From assembly GCA_016188475.1 (NCBI GenBank), contig JACPHT010000006.1, positions 2,330 to 66,329 of the forward strand: a stretch of 64,000 nt of DNA, given 5' to 3'. This document shows, piece after piece, positions 6,925-14,067 of the stretch (position 1 is its first letter; each line of letters begins with the position of its first letter). The translations under genes were made by a program, and so were the position numbers. This DNA comes from Candidatus Uhrbacteria bacterium (GTDB lineage Bacteria > Patescibacteriota > Patescibacteriia > UBA9934 > GWF2-40-263). Under the pieces are notes generated by a model, which was given only the letters and a program-made list of their open reading frames with translations, did no database searches and was not told the origin of the DNA.

Positions 6925-7224
6925 ACGAATGTGTTTTGGTTGCTTATTTTGAAACTCGACTTTGTTTCTATGTCTAAATGACAGCGATAGTATAGATTAA
7001 GTCTCTGATTTTAGCAAGGGCTTGTTAAACCCATAAGCAGCCAATGTCCTTGTCTAGAGTTTGATGCTTTGTTATAATCACGTCGTTCTTAATAATGAAC
7101 ATTCGGGGGTTCCGCCAGAGGCGGACTGACCTTTTTTGTCAGAGCTTCAGTGCTGCGCCCGCCTTTGGCGGGGCAGAGCAGTTTCAGCCTTAGGCTGACC
7201 CGCCTTTGGCGGGGGCTGTTGATT

Positions 7225-7473
7225 ATGTCTTATACAATTTATATTCTGCGCAGTCTCAAAAATGAGAAACGATACATTGGTTATACTGGGAAAAGTGTTG
7301 ATGAAAGATTCCATGAACATTTATCCGGTACGAATCAATGGACTCGACAGAACGGTCCGTTCATTTTGATTCATACTGAGTCATTCAATGACAAAGAATC
7401 AGCCATTAAACGTGAACGTTTTCTAAAAAGCGGTCAAGGTCGTAAATGGCTTGATGAAAATATTCGGGGGTAG
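7225..7473 (+). CDS. GIY-YIG nuclease superfamily protein (YhbQ/UPF0213-like)
   Basis: YTIYILRS...RYIGYTGKSVDERFHEHLSG matches the GIY-YIG core. Its stop codon TAG (7471-7473) lies inside the tRNA 5' exon. Confidence 0.7.
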   Translation: MSYTIYILRSLKNEKRYIGYTGKSVDERFHEHLSGTNQWTRQNGPFILIHTESFNDKESAIKRERFLKSGQGRKWLDENIRG

Positions 7474-7782
7474 CTCAGTGGCAGAGCAGTTGGCTGTGAC
7501 CAGGATCAGACGGTCCAAATAGCAGCTTCCGGTGGAAACATCGGATGAAAAATGAGGTGAATTGCTGGAAGTCTTCGATGAAAATATCTTGATAATCAGC
7601 AGCCAAGCCCCGCTACAGCGGGGAAGGTTCAGAGACTATCCGAAAGGAGTACTGTTTCGACTTTGGTTGAAACGGGAAGCGCCTCACGCCCTTTTGGGCG
7701 ATGATATAGTCCACCCCTTTGGGAAACCAGAGGATTATGTGTAACCAATTGGTCGTGGGTTCGAATCCCACCCCCCGAGCCA
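7464..7782 (+). tRNA. tRNA-Asn(GUU) interrupted by a 244-nt group I intron (exons 7464-7497 and 7742-7782; CCA encoded)
   Basis: The exons rebuild a canonical tRNA. Acceptor UCGGGGG/CCCCCGA; D arm GCUC-AGUGGCA-GAGC; anticodon stem GUUGG/CCAAU; loop CUGU|UAA; V loop UGGUC; T arm GUGGG-UUCGAAU-CCCAC; G73; CCA. U1 and G73 match bacterial tRNA-Asn. The alternative splice junction CU|UGUAA would give Thr(UGU). Confidence 0.7.
7498..7741 (+). ncRNA. group I self-splicing intron (IC3-like) in the tRNA anticodon loop
   Basis: P element AATTGCTGGAA at 7560-7570, Q AATCAGCAGC at 7594-7603, R GTTCAGAGACTA at 7627-7638, S GATATAGTCC at 7703-7712. Candidate IGS GCAGCU (7522-7527) pairs with exon GGCUGU (7492-7497) with U.G at the splice site. 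Terminal G is 7741. No ORF inside. Confidence 0.75.
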
Positions 7783-7971
7783 AAAAACAACCATCGTAAG
7801 TAAGATGGTTGTTTTTTGGCTCCGAACCCTGAACGAAATCCGAACTTTTTTTAGCGAAAATCCGAACGCTGAATTTTGAAAAATTTTTAAGCTCGGGCGG
7901 GCAAAAAGGAAGGAGGTTGGGGGGAAGGAATTTTTGCCCGCCCTCGCTTTTCCGCCGCCGCCGAATTTCGT
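7782..7971. repeat. left arm (IR-L) of a ~190-bp near-perfect inverted repeat flanking the 5-kb cassette
   Basis: The reverse complement of 12953-13143 matches this arm with one substitution (ggaaggagg vs ggaagaagg) and one extra A in the A-run. Contains the terminator hairpin and a nested GGGCGGGCAAAAA...TTTTTGCCCGCCC hairpin. Confidence 0.85.
7783..7820 (+). terminator. rho-independent terminator after the tRNA (aacaaccatc-gtaagtaa-gatggttgtt + T6)
   Basis: A perfect 10-bp stem followed by TTTTTT directly after CCA. It forms the outer part of the left inverted repeat. Confidence 0.6.
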
Positions 7972-8147: not shown

Positions 8148-8363
8148 ATGTCGTCAATAAACAAATCCACTATCGCAGAGAATATGAAGAAATACCGAAA
8201 CAAGCTCGGTATTTCTCAAGATAGGCTCTCAAAACTTGCTGATGTTACCTATAACACGATTATCAAGATTGAATCGGGAGCAAACATCAACCCAACCATA
8301 GAAACGCTGTCTAAAATCGCCAAAGCGCTTAATGTTGGCGTTGATGATTTAATACAGAAATAA
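8148..8363 (+). CDS. XRE-family HTH transcriptional regulator (controller-protein-like)
   Basis: 71 aa. HTH_XRE pattern LGISQDRLSKLADVTYNTIIKIESG. The next gene starts 2 nt after its stop. Confidence 0.75.
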   Translation: MSSINKSTIAENMKKYRNKLGISQDRLSKLADVTYNTIIKIESGANINPTIETLSKIAKALNVGVDDLIQK

Positions 8364-8365
8364 TT

Positions 8366-9502
8366 ATGGCTAGAACATCCTCAATCAAAAATCTAAAGAA
8401 AGCAAGGAAAGCAAAGAACGATGAGTTTTATACCCAATACGGCGACATTCAAAAAGAGATTGAAAAATATCTGGATTATAATCCTGATACTTTTCGCAAC
8501 AAGGTAGTGTATTGCAACTGCGATGATCCGTTTGAAAGCAATTTTTTCCGTTATTTTGTGCTGAATTTTAACAAACTTGGATTGAAACAGCTTATCACCA
8601 CCAGCTATAAACCTTCACCTGTAGCCAACACCCAGCTACAACTGTTTGGTAATGACAAGACTCTTCCGAAATCAAAAGGGCGTCCCAAGATAACCGCCAA
8701 CAAATTTATTATTAACGAAGTGCACGACATAGACGAAGACGGCGAATTCAACTTAAAAGATGTTTCCAAGCAATTAAAAGCAAACAAAAACAATGAATGG
8801 ACGCCACTAGAGGGCGACGGCGATTTTCGTAGCGATGAATGTATTAGTTTGCTTAAACAATCCGACATTGTCGTAACGAACCCCCCCTTTAGTTTGTTTC
8901 GTGAATATGTTAAGCAACTTTTTGATTATAATAAAAAGTTTTTGATTATCGGCAATATTAATTGTCTAACTTATCGAGAGATATTCCAAAAAATTAAAGA
9001 AAATAGAGCATGGCTTGGCAATGGAATGGGAAGGTGGATTTCTGGATTTATTGTGCCTGAATCTTACGAATTGTACGGATCAGAAGCACGAATAGACGAA
9101 AATGGAAACAGAATTGTCGCCACTAATAATTGTTTGTGGCTCACTAATCTTGACCACGGGCGCCGTCATCAACCATTGCCACTTATGACAATGGCGGAGA
9201 ATTTAAAGTATAGTAAACATAAAGAAATTAAAGGAAAAAAGTCGTATGATAAATACGATAATTACAAAGCAATAGAAGTACCTTTTACAGATGCAATACC
9301 AAGTGATTATAAGGGCGTAATGGGTGTGCCAATTACTTTTCTTGATAAATATAATCCTGACCAATTTGAAATTTTAGGAAATTCTAATGTTCGAGGAGAA
9401 CGAGAACATTTAATGAATAATGTAAAAAGTGCAACGGATTGCACTTATATAAACGGTAAGGCGCAATTTGCGCGTATTTTAATTAAACATAAGAAAAAAT
9501 AA
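8366..9502 (+). CDS. N6-adenine-specific DNA methyltransferase (amino-MTase)
   Basis: Motif IV IVVTNPPFSLF (NPPF). Degenerate motif I region NCDDPFESNFF. 378 aa. Confidence 0.7.
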   Translation: MARTSSIKNLKKARKAKNDEFYTQYGDIQKEIEKYLDYNPDTFRNKVVYCNCDDPFESNFFRYFVLNFNKLGLKQLITTSYKPSPVANTQLQLFGNDKTLPKSKGRPKITANKFIINEVHDIDEDGEFNLKDVSKQLKANKNNEWTPLEGDGDFRSDECISLLKQSDIVVTNPPFSLFREYVKQLFDYNKKFLIIGNINCLTYREIFQKIKENRAWLGNGMGRWISGFIVPESYELYGSEARIDENGNRIVATNNCLWLTNLDHGRRHQPLPLMTMAENLKYSKHKEIKGKKSYDKYDNYKAIEVPFTDAIPSDYKGVMGVPITFLDKYNPDQFEILGNSNVRGEREHLMNNVKSATDCTYINGKAQFARILIKHKKK

Positions 9503-9503
9503 T

Positions 9504-10106
9504 ATGAAAGGTGTTATTTATATAATAACAACGGCTGTTTCCGGTTTGATAAAGATCGGACAAACAGGCACAAATAATTATCAAGAAAGAATGCGAAATC
9601 TTGAGGCAAATGGTTATTATAATGTTTCTGGTCTAAAAAGATTTTTTGCAATTGAACTTGATGATTACAATGAGAAAGAAAATCTTTTAAAAGAAATTTT
9701 TAATAAACATCGTGTTGGGGATAGTGAATTATTTGCCCTTGATTATGATTTAGTGCGACAACTTTTGTTATCATTCGAAGGTAAAGTGATTTATCCCAAA
9801 GATGTAAATAAAGAAAAGGAATTTGACGAAGTTTCAAAAGCTAGAGAGCAAGGAACAAGGTTTAGTTTTTATAAAAAAGGAATTAAGAACGGAGAAGAAA
9901 TTGTTTTTATAGCTGACAAAGAAATCACCGCGAAAGTGGTTGGCGAGCGTGAAGTGGAATATGGCGAACAAATTTGGAAACTTGCGCCATTAACATACAA
10001 GATATACGAGCAAAAAGGAGGATTAAATGAGAGTGGCGCATACCAAGGAGCTGCTTATTGGCAATATAAAGGCAAAAGATTAAGAGATTTACCTGATATC
10101 AACTAA
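9504..10106 (+). CDS. T5orf172 / GIY-YIG-like domain protein
   Basis: GVIYIITTAVSGLIKIGQTGTNNYQERMRNLE...GDSELFALD matches the T5orf172 (Mug113-like) pattern. Starts 1 nt after the MTase stop. Confidence 0.55.
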   Translation: MKGVIYIITTAVSGLIKIGQTGTNNYQERMRNLEANGYYNVSGLKRFFAIELDDYNEKENLLKEIFNKHRVGDSELFALDYDLVRQLLLSFEGKVIYPKDVNKEKEFDEVSKAREQGTRFSFYKKGIKNGEEIVFIADKEITAKVVGEREVEYGEQIWKLAPLTYKIYEQKGGLNESGAYQGAAYWQYKGKRLRDLPDIN

Positions 10107-10115
10107 CAACATTAT

Positions 10116-11282
10116 ATGATTACAACTTTAAAAACTAACATTACTGTTAAAGACATTTGCGAAGGGTTTGTTTATAACGAACTTGAAGGCAAGGGCTTGT
10201 TTGGCTTGTCTGGTAAACTAACTATTCAGCCAGAATACCAACGCAATTATATTTATGCTTCTGACGGCGGCAAAAGAGAAATGGCTGTTATTGAATCAGT
10301 CCTCAAGGGATACCCGATAGGATTGATTTATTTTAATAAAATAATCAGCAATAATTTTGAAGTTCTTGACGGACAACAACGCATCACCAGTCTTGGACGA
10401 TTTATTACTGATAAATTTGCTATCAAAGATGAAAACGGAATGCAATATTTTGGTGGCTTAGCAAAAGACAAGAAAAATAAGATATTGGAAACTAAACTGC
10501 TTATTTATGAATGTGAGGGCACGGAAAGTCAGATCAAGGAGTGGTTCAAAACAATCAATATTGCCGGGGTTCCGCTCGTCCCTCAAGAATTGTTAAATGC
10601 GATTTATTCTGGTCCATTTGTTACATTGGGCAAAGAGGAATTCAGTAATAGCCAAAATGCCAATGTTCAAAAATGGAGCGTATACATAAGAGGAAGTGTA
10701 GATCGACAGGCATTTTTTGAAAGAGCATTAGACTGGGTAAGTAAAGGAAATATTGATGATTACATGAGCATTCATCGCAATGACAAAAATATCAATGAGT
10801 TAAAAAAATATTTCAACAGTGTGATCGATTGGATATCAAGTGTGTTTACGGATGTAGAAAGCGAGATGTGCGGACTTGAATGGGGGCGATTGTATGAGCA
10901 GTACCACAAGAAATCTTATGATCCCAAAAAAGTATTAGTCGAAGTACAAAAACTCTACGCCGATCCGTATGTAAAAAATCGCAAAGGCATTTTTGAGTTT
11001 ATTTTAGGTGGCTCTATTGATACAAAATTGCTTGAAGTCCGAGTTTTTGATGAAGCAATTAAAAAAGCAGTATACAAAGAACAAACAACTAAAGCCGAGA
11101 AGAAAAAAGTATCGAACTGCCCACTTTGTGCTATTGGACACGATGCAAACAAAGAAAAAATTTGGAGCTTGAGCGATATGGACGCTGACCATGTTTCGGC
11201 TTGGAGCAAGGGCGGTAAAAGTGATATAAAAAATTGCCAAATGTTGTGTAAAACCCACAATCGCGCAAAAGGTAATCGATAA
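10116..11282 (+). CDS. DUF262 (ParB-like, GmrS-type) domain fused to a C-terminal HNH nuclease; Type IV restriction-like
   Basis: N-terminal DGQQRITSL (the DGQQR motif of DUF262). C-terminal CPLCAIGH...DADHVSAWSKGGKSDIKNCQMLCKTHNRAKGN (HNH His-Me finger). Confidence 0.7.
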   Translation: MITTLKTNITVKDICEGFVYNELEGKGLFGLSGKLTIQPEYQRNYIYASDGGKREMAVIESVLKGYPIGLIYFNKIISNNFEVLDGQQRITSLGRFITDKFAIKDENGMQYFGGLAKDKKNKILETKLLIYECEGTESQIKEWFKTINIAGVPLVPQELLNAIYSGPFVTLGKEEFSNSQNANVQKWSVYIRGSVDRQAFFERALDWVSKGNIDDYMSIHRNDKNINELKKYFNSVIDWISSVFTDVESEMCGLEWGRLYEQYHKKSYDPKKVLVEVQKLYADPYVKNRKGIFEFILGGSIDTKLLEVRVFDEAIKKAVYKEQTTKAEKKKVSNCPLCAIGHDANKEKIWSLSDMDADHVSAWSKGGKSDIKNCQMLCKTHNRAKGNR

Positions 11283-11285
11283 ACT

Positions 11286-11945
11286 ATGAGTGATAAATTT
11301 TCAATTGAAGACTTAATAATGAAAGTAATGCCCGGAGGTTTTTTGTTGGCAATATTCTATTTTTTGTTCAGGGAAAAAATCCAATTTAACTTTATTGAAA
11401 ATTTAGATTTCTTTTACACTTTTTTATTTTTTTGTTCGGCTTATATAATCGGAGAATTATTACAAACCATTGCTCATGAAATTGAATGTATTATTAATAT
11501 TTTCTTCAAATTAAGACGGCCATCGGAAATATTTTTATACAAAAACAATCCAATAACAAAGAGCGAATACAAAAGGAATGAGTTGATGAAAGAGCTTAGA
11601 TTGGAAGAAACAGAATCAAAACTTTTTGATCAAGAATACTCCGATTTATCTTTTTGGTGGTGGAAAAGGAATAAAAAGAGTGACGAGGTATCACAAAGTA
11701 TATTTTGGAAGCTCTATTCTAATATAAACCAAACAGATGAAATAAAAATTGCAAATAGGAATTATTTATTTGTTCGCGTAATGATGTTAGAATTTTTATT
11801 GATAGGAATTATTTTTATTATTGATAAAAATTTTTATTTGAGCTTTTTAAGTTTTTTGTTTTGCATTATTTTTTTATGGAGGGGCAGAGGTACTGCAAGG
11901 GGCTTAGTATTTAAAACTATATTATTAAATTTAAAAAATAGTTGA
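11286..11945 (+). CDS. integral membrane protein (4 predicted TM), unknown function
   Basis: Two hydrophobic segments at each terminus. 3-nt gap from the upstream gene. Confidence 0.5.
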   Translation: MSDKFSIEDLIMKVMPGGFLLAIFYFLFREKIQFNFIENLDFFYTFLFFCSAYIIGELLQTIAHEIECIINIFFKLRRPSEIFLYKNNPITKSEYKRNELMKELRLEETESKLFDQEYSDLSFWWWKRNKKSDEVSQSIFWKLYSNINQTDEIKIANRNYLFVRVMMLEFLLIGIIFIIDKNFYLSFLSFLFCIIFLWRGRGTARGLVFKTILLNLKNS

Positions 11946-11946
11946 T

Positions 11947-12930
11947 ATGAAAAAACTTGTTATATTAAATGTGGGTGGCGCTTTAGCATCATACGCCGAA
12001 ATTGATGATAAAAAGGTAATAATTGATTTAGGAAAAAGTACTGATTTTTCACCAGTAGACAATTTTTTAATCCCATTGGCTCAGAAGCGATCTTTTAGAA
12101 AAACAGACATCGCTGGAAACACAGAAAAATATCACATAGACCAATTATTCCTAAGTCATTTGGACAATGACCACATTTCGGATTATGAAAAATTTAGGGA
12201 AAAATTTCATCCCAACTATATGACTTGTCCAAATGACAATGAAACACAGGATAGTATTTTTAAAATCATCATCAGTTTTTTCACTGGCGAAAATAATGCA
12301 AGAAAACTGGTTCTTTCTGATATGAAAACGAGGACGGCGAATGTTCCTGGTAATCCTTATGGGATGTCGCCTTCAAATCCGCTTGTCTCTATTATCCCAG
12401 AAATAATGAAGCTATTTTACATCAAACCGACCGAGTGCGGAAACGATGAAAATTTAAAACCCGGGTATGCAAATAATATAAGCCTTCTTCTATTTTTTCA
12501 TTCAAATAATAAAACACTTTTAATGCCTGGCGACATATTAAAAGAGGGTATGGAGTGTCTAATTAAACGCAATAACGATTTCAAAAAGCAACTTAACGAT
12601 TTTGGTGTTGACTTCTTAATTGCTCCTCATCACGGGCTTGCGACTTCATTTTCTGAACGATTATTTCAAGAAATTAAAGGAAATAAAACAAGACTAAATA
12701 TTATTTCCGAAAAAGTTAGAGAGGAAGATTCTGACGAAAACCGATCAGATGTTGATAAAAGATATTACGATTCTAATTATTCATCCGGAGAAAATTCTTT
12801 AAAACAAAACGCTGTGAAAACATCAATGGGACATATTGTAATAGATTTAGAATCTGACGAAACTGAGATTAAACAATGCTCTGATATTAATGATGTTTTA
12901 AAAGAATTTATTCCAGTTTCTAACTCGTAA
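11947..12930 (+). CDS. metallo-beta-lactamase-fold hydrolase, ComEC C-terminal-domain-like
   Basis: SHLDNDHI (HxHxDH variant), LMPGD, LIAPHHGL; compare ComEC ...HHGS. 1-nt gap from the upstream gene. Confidence 0.65.
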   Translation: MKKLVILNVGGALASYAEIDDKKVIIDLGKSTDFSPVDNFLIPLAQKRSFRKTDIAGNTEKYHIDQLFLSHLDNDHISDYEKFREKFHPNYMTCPNDNETQDSIFKIIISFFTGENNARKLVLSDMKTRTANVPGNPYGMSPSNPLVSIIPEIMKLFYIKPTECGNDENLKPGYANNISLLLFFHSNNKTLLMPGDILKEGMECLIKRNNDFKKQLNDFGVDFLIAPHHGLATSFSERLFQEIKGNKTRLNIISEKVREEDSDENRSDVDKRYYDSNYSSGENSLKQNAVKTSMGHIVIDLESDETEIKQCSDINDVLKEFIPVSNS

Positions 12931-12952: not shown

Positions 12953-13143
12953 ACGAAATTCGGCGGCGGCGGAAAAGCGAGGGCGGGCAAAAATTCCTTC
13001 CCCCCAACCTTCTTCCTTTTTGCCCGCCCGAGCTTAAAAATTTTTCAAAATTCAGCGTTCGGATTTTCGCTAAAAAAAGTTCGGATTTCGTTCAGGGTTC
13101 GGAGCCAAAAAACAACCATCTTACTTACGATGGTTGTTTTTTT
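12953..13143. repeat. right arm (IR-R) of the ~190-bp inverted repeat
   Basis: Reverse complement of 7782-7971 (see IR-L). Confidence 0.85.
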
Positions 13144-13157
13144 ATACTTTCTTAAAC

Positions 13158-13187
13158 AAAAAAACCCGCGGGATGCGCGGGAGTGAG
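13158..13187 (-). terminator. rho-independent terminator on the - strand (cccgcg-catc-ccgcggg + T7)
   Basis: Lies downstream of the - strand gene that ends at 13201. Confidence 0.5.
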
Positions 13188-13200
13188 ATTGACTAAAGTG

Positions 13201-14067
13201 TTAACCATGCTGATGCAGAACCGCGTATGAAAGACCTGGCATGAGAGATCCGTCATCAATGTCGACAGCGAGCATACCGCCAGCGAAGAGCATTGGATAT
13301 GACGAATCCATATAGTGCCAAGTGAATGGCACAGTCGAGATGTGCGAAGGTACTGACCCGAGCGCGATGCCGTGGATGCCCCAGCGTCCTTCCTCAGCAC
13401 GTGTCCAGTCGAACGCGTCATCCGACTTTTCTATTAGAACACCTTTTGGTGACTTGTTGCGTCTGACAGATCTTTCATCCTCTGATTGGAGAATGAAGTT
13501 GACGAACGTGCTTATCCAACCATTGAAAGTATCAGAGCCAGACTCGGAGCTGAACTTGTAGAGTGACTTCCAAAAGTATTCATCGAGTATTTCGCCACCG
13601 GCTTGATCAACGATCTTTTGTAGAACCGGCAAAAGATGCTTGAAGTAGCGACCAAGCGGACGGGCAAAAACCTCGGAGAGTTGCATCGCTGCGTTCAGGA
13701 CCTTGCGGTAGTCCTCCGGTGTGCCTGCAAGGCGAATATCCGGTATTCCACATGACGTATAGGTACTATAGTCGTAGAACTTCTGCGTCGCGTTCATGAA
13801 CACGACGAGACTTGCCGCATCTGTCTCTGGCGTAGCAGTCGTGAATCCTGGCAACATGTGTTGCATGATACCTGGCGGAACGACATCCTCGAGCTTGGGT
13901 CGGAACAATACGATCGCTTCACCCCATGGACTCTTTGGGTCGCCGTAGCACAGGTTGTCGTGTTGCACGTCTATTTTCACTTTATCGCGCGAACGTGTGA
14001 ACAGGTGAGAGAACTCCTCGGGATTCAGGTTCACGGCTGTCGCGACCTCGTGCGAGATTAGGAACAT
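13201..14067 (-). CDS. hypothetical protein, GC-rich; possibly the C-terminal part of a gene interrupted by an in-frame TGA
   Basis: 288-aa ORF at about 52% GC in a roughly 38% GC genome. ORF 14110..14367 is in the same frame, separated only by a TGA at 14110-14112 plus 14 codons. Confidence 0.5.
   Translation of the reverse strand: MFLISHEVATAVNLNPEEFSHLFTRSRDKVKIDVQHDNLCYGDPKSPWGEAIVLFRPKLEDVVPPGIMQHMLPGFTTATPETDAASLVVFMNATQKFYDYSTYTSCGIPDIRLAGTPEDYRKVLNAAMQLSEVFARPLGRYFKHLLPVLQKIVDQAGGEILDEYFWKSLYKFSSESGSDTFNGWISTFVNFILQSEDERSVRRNKSPKGVLIEKSDDAFDWTRAEEGRWGIHGIALGSVPSHISTVPFTWHYMDSSYPMLFAGGMLAVDIDDGSLMPGLSYAVLHQHG

Follow-up and report, generated by a model that had tools for sequence, protein, structure and literature searches.

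The 145 phage defence candidates catalogued by PADLOC, which go back to genes lying within Type I restriction-modification (R-M), BREX and DISARM loci, include PDC-M48, a "guilt-by-embedding" candidate composed of a small protein with four transmembrane (TM) helices, M48A, and a protein with the metallo-β-lactamase (MBL) fold, M48B (Payne et al. 2024, bioRxiv 10.1101/2024.01.29.577857). The C-terminal domain of ComEC is an extracellular Mn2+-dependent DNA endonuclease, which differs from its nearest MBL relatives in that Asp takes the place of the second motif II His, and Asn that of the His in motif III (Silale et al. 2021, PMC8579336). Protease-activated MBLs, which are remotely related to ComEC, are Zn-dependent nucleases acting on double-stranded DNA (PMC12642450, PMC12799240), and in the Kiwa system the four-TM protein KwaA senses phage-induced membrane changes (PMC11785009). 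Here, we analysed two adjacent genes of a Candidatus Uhrbacteria bacterium, encoding a small four-TM protein and a ComEC-like MBL protein (Table 1), which are carried by a 64,000-nucleotide (nt) stretch of contig JACPHT010000006.1 (positions 2,330 to 66,329; hereafter the window). On balance, we think it probable that this pair is an autonomous and horizontally mobile two-component module, made of a membrane protein and a DNase effector, that defends its hosts against phages or other mobile elements.

The gene pair and the ComEC-like hydrolase

In the window, the TGA stop codon of the TM gene (11943-11945) and the ATG start codon of the MBL gene (beginning at 11947) are separated by a single T (11946), so that the open reading frame (ORF) coordinates agree with the 1-nt distance noticed in an earlier, sequence-only reading of this DNA. 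This tight spacing is not due to chance, because the gap is kept between −23 and +40 nt, with a mode of 1 nt, in the 23 related loci that have a TM gene upstream of the MBL gene. The translational coupling claimed by the same reading stands in part: the spacing is real and conserved, the coupling itself is deduced from it, and no Shine-Dalgarno-like sequence is visible upstream of the window MBL start codon. Nor can an internal promoter be claimed for the pair, since the matches of a promoter scan were no commoner than in shuffled sequence.

The MBL protein gives only a sub-threshold match to Lactamase_B in Pfam. From 48 aligned homologues, with an average identity of 61% per column, we obtained an AlphaFold2 (AF2) model with a pLDDT (predicted local distance difference test) of 91.2 and a pTM (predicted template modelling score) of 0.91. 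The best match of this model in the PDB, as searched with Foldseek, is the β-lactamase-like domain of ComEC (9ic4; E = 8.5e-10; TM-score of 0.70 on the target), and the second-best is the phosphorylcholine esterase Pce/CbpE (1wra and 2bib; E about 1e-8). RNase J, CPSF73 and RNase Z follow at E values of about 1e-5, with TM-scores of about 0.35; hence, no grouping with the RNase J/Z or β-lactamase families, the first outcome that would have spoken against the effector module suggested by the sequence-only reading, was found. Likewise, a profile search of the PDB sequences returned ComEC/Rec2 chains alone (9vc9, 3e-5), aligned through NNxS...GD...APHHG.

The active site leads to the same conclusion. 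The HLDNDH, LMPGD and IAPHHG motifs previously noticed are all present where they had been placed (HLDNDH, residues 71-76; LLMPGD, 191-196; LIAPHHG, 224-230), and D27, H71, D73, D75, H76, N176, N177, D196, H228 and H229 are invariant in the 48 homologues. The family of the window protein thereby possesses the ligands of a ComEC-type MBL, namely HxDxDH in motif II, Asn in motif III, Asp in motif IV and His in motif V. Similarly to the C-terminal domain of ComEC/Rec2, the window protein combines the motif II Asp and the motif III Asn in its metal-ligand set, and shares with that domain the NNxS, GD and APHHG motifs. Together, these data support the proposal that the MBL protein is ComEC-like, both in its fold (9ic4 as the top match) and in its ComEC-specific ligands.

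Unlike ComEC, the window protein is a free-standing polypeptide of 327 amino acids (aa), with an insertion of about 60 residues (about 95-160) and without OB or channel domains. One of its loops (residues 255-273) is conserved and has low confidence in the model. The absence of a competence channel, also asserted by the sequence-only reading, was confirmed in that neither protein of the pair matches the Competence or DUF4131 domains in Pfam or NCBIfam. The NCBIfam matches of the MBL protein, to ComEC_Rec2, the 6A-MBL enzyme and Avs1a, are all sub-threshold. The ComEC/Rec2 model TIGR00361 gives 25.9 bits as against a cutoff of 190, through a match confined to residues 171-246, and we rejected the identification of the protein as ComEC/Rec2 itself because of this low score and the missing channel domain. 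Identity with the 6A-MBL enzyme, which is linked to ubiquitin-like machinery, was rejected as well (23.7 bits versus a cutoff of 220).

The N-terminus of the MBL protein makes up the first β-hairpin of the fold, where it aligns with the "DVGQG" segment of ComEC, and there is no signal peptide. Because this N-terminus is a hairpin of the fold and not a signal peptide, the MBL protein should be cytoplasmic, in contrast to the extracellular ComEC domain.

The membrane protein

The four TM helices ascribed to the membrane protein were recovered by both hydropathy, with hydrophobic segments beginning at residues 10, 45, 161 and 182, and the AF2 model (45 homologues; pLDDT 90, pTM 0.84), which has long helices at residues 7-27, 41-65, 151-179 and 183-218 and a helical region (67-147) in between. 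The mean numbers of Lys plus Arg per sequence, 16 in the middle region (64-155) and 4.4 in the C-tail, place these two parts in the cytoplasm and the two short loops outside. The predicted topology is therefore N-in/C-in, with two TM hairpins surrounding a basic, helical and cytoplasmic region of about 90 residues, and a basic C-tail. Conserved polar or charged residues occur within TM2 (E57 and Q60) and TM3 (R164).

We found no match for this protein in Pfam, PADLOC, PHROG or NCBIfam, and the PDB fold search with its model returned nothing below E = 2. The family comprises 137 homologues (70 representatives at 50% identity), which are all of 280 aa or less and are never fused to another domain. 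We refer to it below as the type A partner.

Conservation and mobility of the pair

Searches gave 137 homologues for the TM protein and 224 for the MBL protein, which occur on the same contigs, with adjacent locus tags. The pairing was counted in 25 distinct loci (designated by L numbers), the window included. In 14 of them, the gene immediately preceding the MBL gene encodes a type A TM protein, with gaps of −4 to +6 nt, and the pairwise distances of the two proteins in the type A loci are correlated (r = 0.86). Even distant type A relatives (E of 1e-9 to 1e-36 against the profile) precede MBLs with the HxDxDH motif. A lack of conservation of the pairing, the second outcome that would have spoken against the proposal, was thus not found.

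The sequence-only reading had asked whether the pair occurs elsewhere without the genes that lie upstream of it in the window. It does, the neighbouring genes varying from locus to locus. In L007 and L008, the pair is about 90% identical to that of the window at the nucleotide level, from position 11147 on, and the upstream methylase and HNH proteins are just 35-50% identical to their window counterparts. From this difference, it appears that the pair is transferred, and diverges, independently of its neighbours. Members occur sporadically, with 45-94% identity, in Patescibacteria, Gracilibacteria, Bacteroidota, Verrucomicrobiota and Atribacterota-like metagenome-assembled genomes (MAGs). The TM and MBL genes are thus a two-gene module that moves between distant bacteria.

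As a side observation, the genes of the members from Gracilibacteria and Peribacteria (L006/L024, L023, L026 and L027) give intact proteins only if TGA is taken as a sense codon (translation table 25). In some database proteins of this group, a W stands at a conserved G (for example P0084 and P0187), which suggests a translation with the wrong code.

Membrane partners and relation to PDC-M48

The same MBL clade, with members 44-77% identical to the MBL protein of the window, is also preceded by at least four other types of small multi-TM proteins. These are type B (165-180 aa; L003, L020, L021, L022, L028 and L042), type C (226-248 aa; L016, L017 and L025), type D (about 200 aa; L023) and type E (206 aa; viral contig L048). 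The hhalign comparisons of A with B, A with C and B with C gave probabilities below 5%, hence no similarity, with the B and C alignments being shallow enough to leave room for a very remote homology. In a neighbour-joining tree of the MBLs (no bootstrap values), the type-B-associated L003 is nested within the type A clade, and L020 (type B) stands beside L016/L017 (type C). Because it mixes the partner types in this way, the tree implies that the TM partner was probably replaced during the evolution of the MBL clade.

Similarly to the window pair, PDC-M48 associates a small four-TM protein with a ComEC-type (HxDxDH) MBL, through adjacent genes found in R-M loci, Type I included. The two architectures meet in the type B partner, which is the PADLOC PDC-M48A protein (8.8e-65, full length); in L003, an MBL that is 77% identical to that of the window is paired with such a true PDC-M48A protein. 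The window TM protein is unlike M48A, in that it has no PADLOC match at E values up to 10 and reaches an hhalign probability of 4%. As for the MBL protein, it matches the M48B model PDLC04675 over nearly its full length (5.7e-11, 40 bits). However, the window-clade MBLs match the M48B models no better than they match LmuA (Lamassu) or RTasMBL (DRT), with 32-51 bits, as against up to 428 bits for true M48B proteins.

Six loci (L016, L017, L021, L022, L025 and L042) have a second MBL gene upstream of the TM gene, forming an MBL-TM-MBL triplet, in which the TM gene is of the M48A type in three cases. In the four of these loci that were scanned, the upstream MBL matches PDC-M48B (1.6e-16 to 3.9e-129). 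These triplets suggest that some PDC-M48 loci have three genes, of which the window-clade MBL is the unmodelled third. L048 also has the MBL-TM-MBL order, with an upstream MBL gene split by a frameshift.

The statement of the sequence-only reading that the pair is not a named system thus has to be amended: the architecture is already a PADLOC candidate, PDC-M48, and what holds is that the window TM protein is not covered by the PDC-M48 models and that the MBL protein seems not to be. A search for "PDC-M48" by name found no paper in the library searched. The window pair is made of new TM and MBL clades within an architecture that PADLOC has already flagged as a candidate.

Genomic contexts

The pair sits after, or inside, at least five kinds of R-M systems. 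It follows an EcoRI-like methyltransferase gene and a DUF262-HNH gene in the window, L007, L008 and L011; the M.HpaII and R.HpaII genes in L012; a D12 methylase gene in L014; and a Type IIG/ISP enzyme gene in L040. Within Type I operons, it lies between hsdS and hsdR (L041 and L042), and it is also found immediately downstream of hsdS (L019, L021, L022 and L028). Elsewhere, the pair is near a CBASS operon (L001), and a solo MBL gene stands two genes from a Type I system in an integrase-bearing island (L005). In another group of loci (L006, L016, L017, L023 and L026), the pair is beside genes for S24 CI/LexA-like repressors, in the vicinity of genes for a ParB-methylase, a terminase and a serine recombinase.

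An S24 LexA/CI-like repressor gene is located just upstream of the unit in L001, L006, L016, L017, L023, L026 and L043, often together with genes for a DUF2188 protein and an unknown protein of about 270 aa. ParB-methylase and terminase genes lie downstream in several of the S24-repressor loci. This arrangement suggests a prophage-like element in which the module sits next to the immunity region. A tblastn search of 50,697 phage genomes gave no match, IMG/VR gave one match only, and the plasmid databases gave three weak matches (the context of the one that was inspected is uninformative).

In the window itself, we take the pair to form the 3′-terminal part of one compact operon, which also contains a Type II R-M system and the PADLOC candidate PDC-S57 (Table 1), and to be an additional defence layer of a mobile 5-kb cassette. 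Together, these contexts, which are typical of defence and superinfection-exclusion genes and are the kind of settings that nominated PDC-M48, point to a function of this sort.

Comparison with other systems

ComEC-related MBL folds, as that of the window protein, occur in several anti-phage systems: the protease-activated MBL/HamM proteins (Avs, Hachiman and others), LmuA-MBL, RTasMBL, Avs1a and 6A-MBL. The window MBL gives weak matches to PDC-M48B, RTasMBL, LmuA, ComEC_Rec2, 6A-MBL and Avs1a, and its matches to the defence-associated MBL families, although reciprocal between hidden Markov models, are all below the family cutoffs. Unlike those defence MBLs, the window pair comes without a protease, STAND, SMC or reverse transcriptase partner, and its constant partner is a small membrane protein. 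No protease domain directly adjoins the pair in the window, and the related loci have only the S24 LexA/CI-type repressor peptidase, in some cases. We thus rejected a protease-activated MBL module, there being no adjacent or fused trypsin-, caspase- or subtilisin-like protease. In HamM, the active site is occluded by inhibitory linkers. Rst_Hydrolase-3Tm, another system made of a hydrolase and a TM protein, was rejected because its hydrolase is HAD-like (PMC9122126), whereas the window fold is that of an MBL.

Kiwa (KwaA and KwaB) and the RexAB system of phage lambda, in which RexB has four TM helices, resemble the window pair in combining a small four-TM protein with a cytoplasmic partner directed at nucleic acids. 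RexAB is transcribed with the prophage repressor, rexAB following cI in lambda. Similarly, the unit in L016, L017 and L023 appears to be transcribed with a CI/LexA-like repressor gene located on the same strand. The likeness is one of analogy only: there is no sequence or fold similarity, the partner is an MBL hydrolase instead of a DUF4868 protein or RexA, and neither window protein has a PADLOC Kwa match.

The sequence-only reading had considered, as an alternative, that the MBL protein could be a cyclic-nucleotide phosphodiesterase, as some anti-defence proteins are. This alternative is not upheld, in view of the ComEC-type ligands, the lack of a match in the 50,697 phage genomes and the single match in IMG/VR. 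More specifically, the phage-encoded anti-defence MBL phosphodiesterases of the Apyc1 type have the canonical HxHxDH form of motif II, instead of the HxDxDH form of the window protein, and an assignment to this class was rejected. The comparison with an annotated phage MBL-domain protein (BFVD) yielded an E value of 0.3 and TM-scores of 0.23-0.31.

Proposed function

We propose that the membrane protein may hold the nuclease, or regulate it, on the cytoplasmic side of the membrane, which would involve a physical interaction between the two proteins, and may couple an infection cue perceived at the membrane (DNA injection or envelope perturbation) to the nuclease activity. The activated MBL protein would then cut either the incoming DNA near its entry site or all the DNA of the cell, as in abortive infection. 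That the output would be DNA cleavage is supported by the invariant metal ligands, the DNase activity of the ComEC domain and that of the defence MBL clade remotely related to ComEC. The anchoring or gating role of the membrane protein is suggested by analogy with KwaA of Kiwa, as a sensor of membrane changes. A more ambitious version of this proposal appears to us rather unlikely. It states that interchangeable four-TM sensors, which perceive the entry of phage DNA or a perturbed envelope, license a constant ComEC-type Mn-dependent DNase, located on the inner side of the membrane, against incoming DNA, that the module is appended to any type of R-M system as a second layer and is the third gene of many PDC-M48 loci, and that it represents a new mechanistic class of membrane-gated immunity.

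Several observations weigh against a defence module with the MBL protein as its DNase effector. At least five TM families without detectable mutual similarity accompany the constant MBL; by analogy with the swapping of effectors in other systems, the effector could be the TM protein, as the part that is exchanged, and the MBL could be the invariable sensor or enzyme. Pce is the second-best fold match, making a non-DNA phosphodiester substrate possible. In Eudoraea (L005), the MBL gene is intact and no TM ORF exists upstream of it in any frame. Both the TM-MBL family and PDC-M48, as one of the 145 PADLOC candidates, have candidate status only, and most of the contexts come from MAGs, for which binning and taxonomy are uncertain.

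The main rival, which we regard as unlikely, inverts the roles of the two proteins. The TM protein would be a killing pore or depolarising channel, comparable to those of lambda RexB, CBASS or Pycsar, and the MBL protein would be a sensor or regulator, which either hydrolyses a nucleic-acid or nucleotide cue or restrains the TM protein. Such roles would suit a TM partner that is exchanged between at least five unrelated families while the MBL stays constant, the conserved residues E57, Q60 and R164 within the TM helices, and the position of the unit after a CI/LexA-like repressor gene on the same strand in L016, L017 and L023, like that of rexAB after cI. They fit less well with the fact that all partners are small four-TM proteins of similar layout, and not a mix of effector types, and with the effector function of related MBL clades elsewhere. 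The invariant catalytic ligands suit a sensor enzyme as well as an effector and do not discriminate between the two assignments.

The other explanations are less likely, as is a phage anti-defence role. Little credence is given to an addiction or stabilisation module, akin to a toxin-antitoxin system, that would retain the mobile R-M cassette or prophage. The pair is a tightly coupled two-gene unit always found on mobile or accessory DNA (inverted-repeat cassettes, recombinase loci and prophage-like regions), and it has two exceptions, L028, where the TM and MBL genes are both truncated and fused to each other, and the solo MBL of L005. However, an R-M system already stabilises itself, the Pfam and PADLOC searches relate neither protein to a known toxin-antitoxin family, and toxin-antitoxin modules often double as defence, so that this explanation overlaps with the one that we prefer. 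It is just as improbable that the MBL protein is brought to the membrane by its partner as a phosphodiesterase for a non-DNA substrate, such as cyclic nucleotides or, as with Pce, the head groups of phospholipids or teichoic acids. The rank of Pce/CbpE among the fold matches and a membrane partner that would set the enzyme beside lipids are consistent with this possibility, but the family has both the motif II Asp and the motif III Asn that separate ComEC from Pce, the best structural and sequence matches are with ComEC, the protein has no signal peptide, and phage MBLs match it poorly, with no match in the phage genomes. Finally, we find it very hard to credit a housekeeping role in DNA uptake or nucleotide scavenging, in which the pair would be a split, minimal ComEC-like machine of Patescibacteria with reduced genomes. 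A ComEC-type nuclease does accompany a membrane protein, and many hosts are bacteria of the candidate phyla radiation. Yet, nothing in the TM protein resembles the competence or DUF4131 domains of ComEC, the MBL protein is predicted to be cytoplasmic and not extracellular as in ComEC, members of high identity are scattered patchily across phyla, R-M operons and prophage regions surround the pair, and the GC content of the cassette (0.27-0.37) departs from that of its flanks (0.40-0.52).

If the pair is a defence module, as we favour, then a widespread clade of ComEC-type nucleases lies outside the current sets of hidden Markov models, and scans of the DefenseFinder or PADLOC style would miss it in Patescibacteria and other uncultured lineages, in which little is known of the defence repertoires. 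Swappable four-TM partners of a constant nuclease offer a natural experiment on the gating of cytoplasmic effectors by membrane proteins, and, as the module recurs at the 3′ end of unrelated R-M operons, one may ask whether it acts in concert with restriction. The pair looks like a good target for experiments.

The cassette and its flanks in the window

The cassette contains six genes on the same strand, 1-9 nt apart, in the order C-protein, methylase, PDC-S57, DUF262-HNH, TM and MBL (Table 1). Homologues of the C-protein with 55-68% identity are located upstream of the pair in L001, L007, L011 and L012. The PDC-S57 gene, between the methylase and nuclease genes, is a second defence candidate embedded in the operon; its product is present in L008 (75% identical) and absent from L007 and L011. 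The EcoRI-family methylase is accompanied by a DUF262-HNH nuclease instead of an EcoRI-type endonuclease, and the same pairing recurs in L007, L008 and L011. This association is unusual because GmrSD-like domains usually mark modification-dependent (Type IV) enzymes.

Table 1. Positions of the gene pair, its operon and the bordering repeats in the window.
Feature	Coordinates	Strand	Basis or remark
Inverted repeat, left arm, 190 nt	7782..7971	.	Begins at the tRNA gene's 3′ end
HTH_3 (helix-turn-helix)/C-protein-like regulator, first gene of the cassette	8148..8363	+	Pfam 3.3e-16; PADLOC control protein
EcoRI-like N6-adenine DNA methyltransferase	8366..9502	+	Pfam EcoRI_methylase 1.5e-131; PADLOC MTase_II 4e-119
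T5orf172/GIY-YIG-like protein, PADLOC candidate PDC-S57	9504..10106	+	Pfam; PADLOC 3.6e-55
GmrSD_N (DUF262) and HNH nuclease, likely restriction endonuclease	10116..11282	+	PADLOC REase_II PDLC03418 1.2e-83, full length
Small four-TM inner-membrane protein, 219 aa, type A partner	11286..11945	+	ORF, hydropathy, AF2 model
MBL-fold metallo-hydrolase similar to the ComEC C-terminal domain, 327 aa, predicted cytoplasmic, predicted Mn/Zn-dependent DNase	11947..12930	+	AF2, Foldseek, hidden Markov models, motifs
Motif II of the MBL protein, H71-L-D73-N-D75-H76, ComEC-type metal-binding motif	12157..12174	+	
Inverted repeat, right arm, 190 nt	12953..13142	.	99% complementary; outer end is a terminator-like hairpin (13107-13142)

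The two arms of the inverted repeat bordering the cassette are 4981 nt apart, have only these two copies in the window and carry terminator-like hairpins at their outer ends. A 65-nt piece of the repeat, 98% identical, lies downstream of the MBL gene in L007. The 190-nt repeats could be the termini of a non-autonomous mobile cassette or of an invertible segment, and an assembly artefact is also possible.

To the left of the cassette, a group I intron (Rfam RF00028, 83 bits, match at 7410-7733) interrupts a tRNA gene (about 7464-7782). ARAGORN reported no tRNA anywhere in the 64-kb window, and trial splicing gave ambiguous anticodons, of which His-GUG was the commonest complete one. Immediately upstream of the intron-split tRNA gene is a small GIY-YIG ORF (7150-7473). 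Directly to the right of the cassette is a DUF4419 gene on the minus strand (13201-14067), with a terminator hairpin of its own (13165-13181). The GC content is about 0.50 in this gene, as compared with about 0.30 inside the cassette and about 0.40 further out, and the DUF4419 gene may be another acquired gene.

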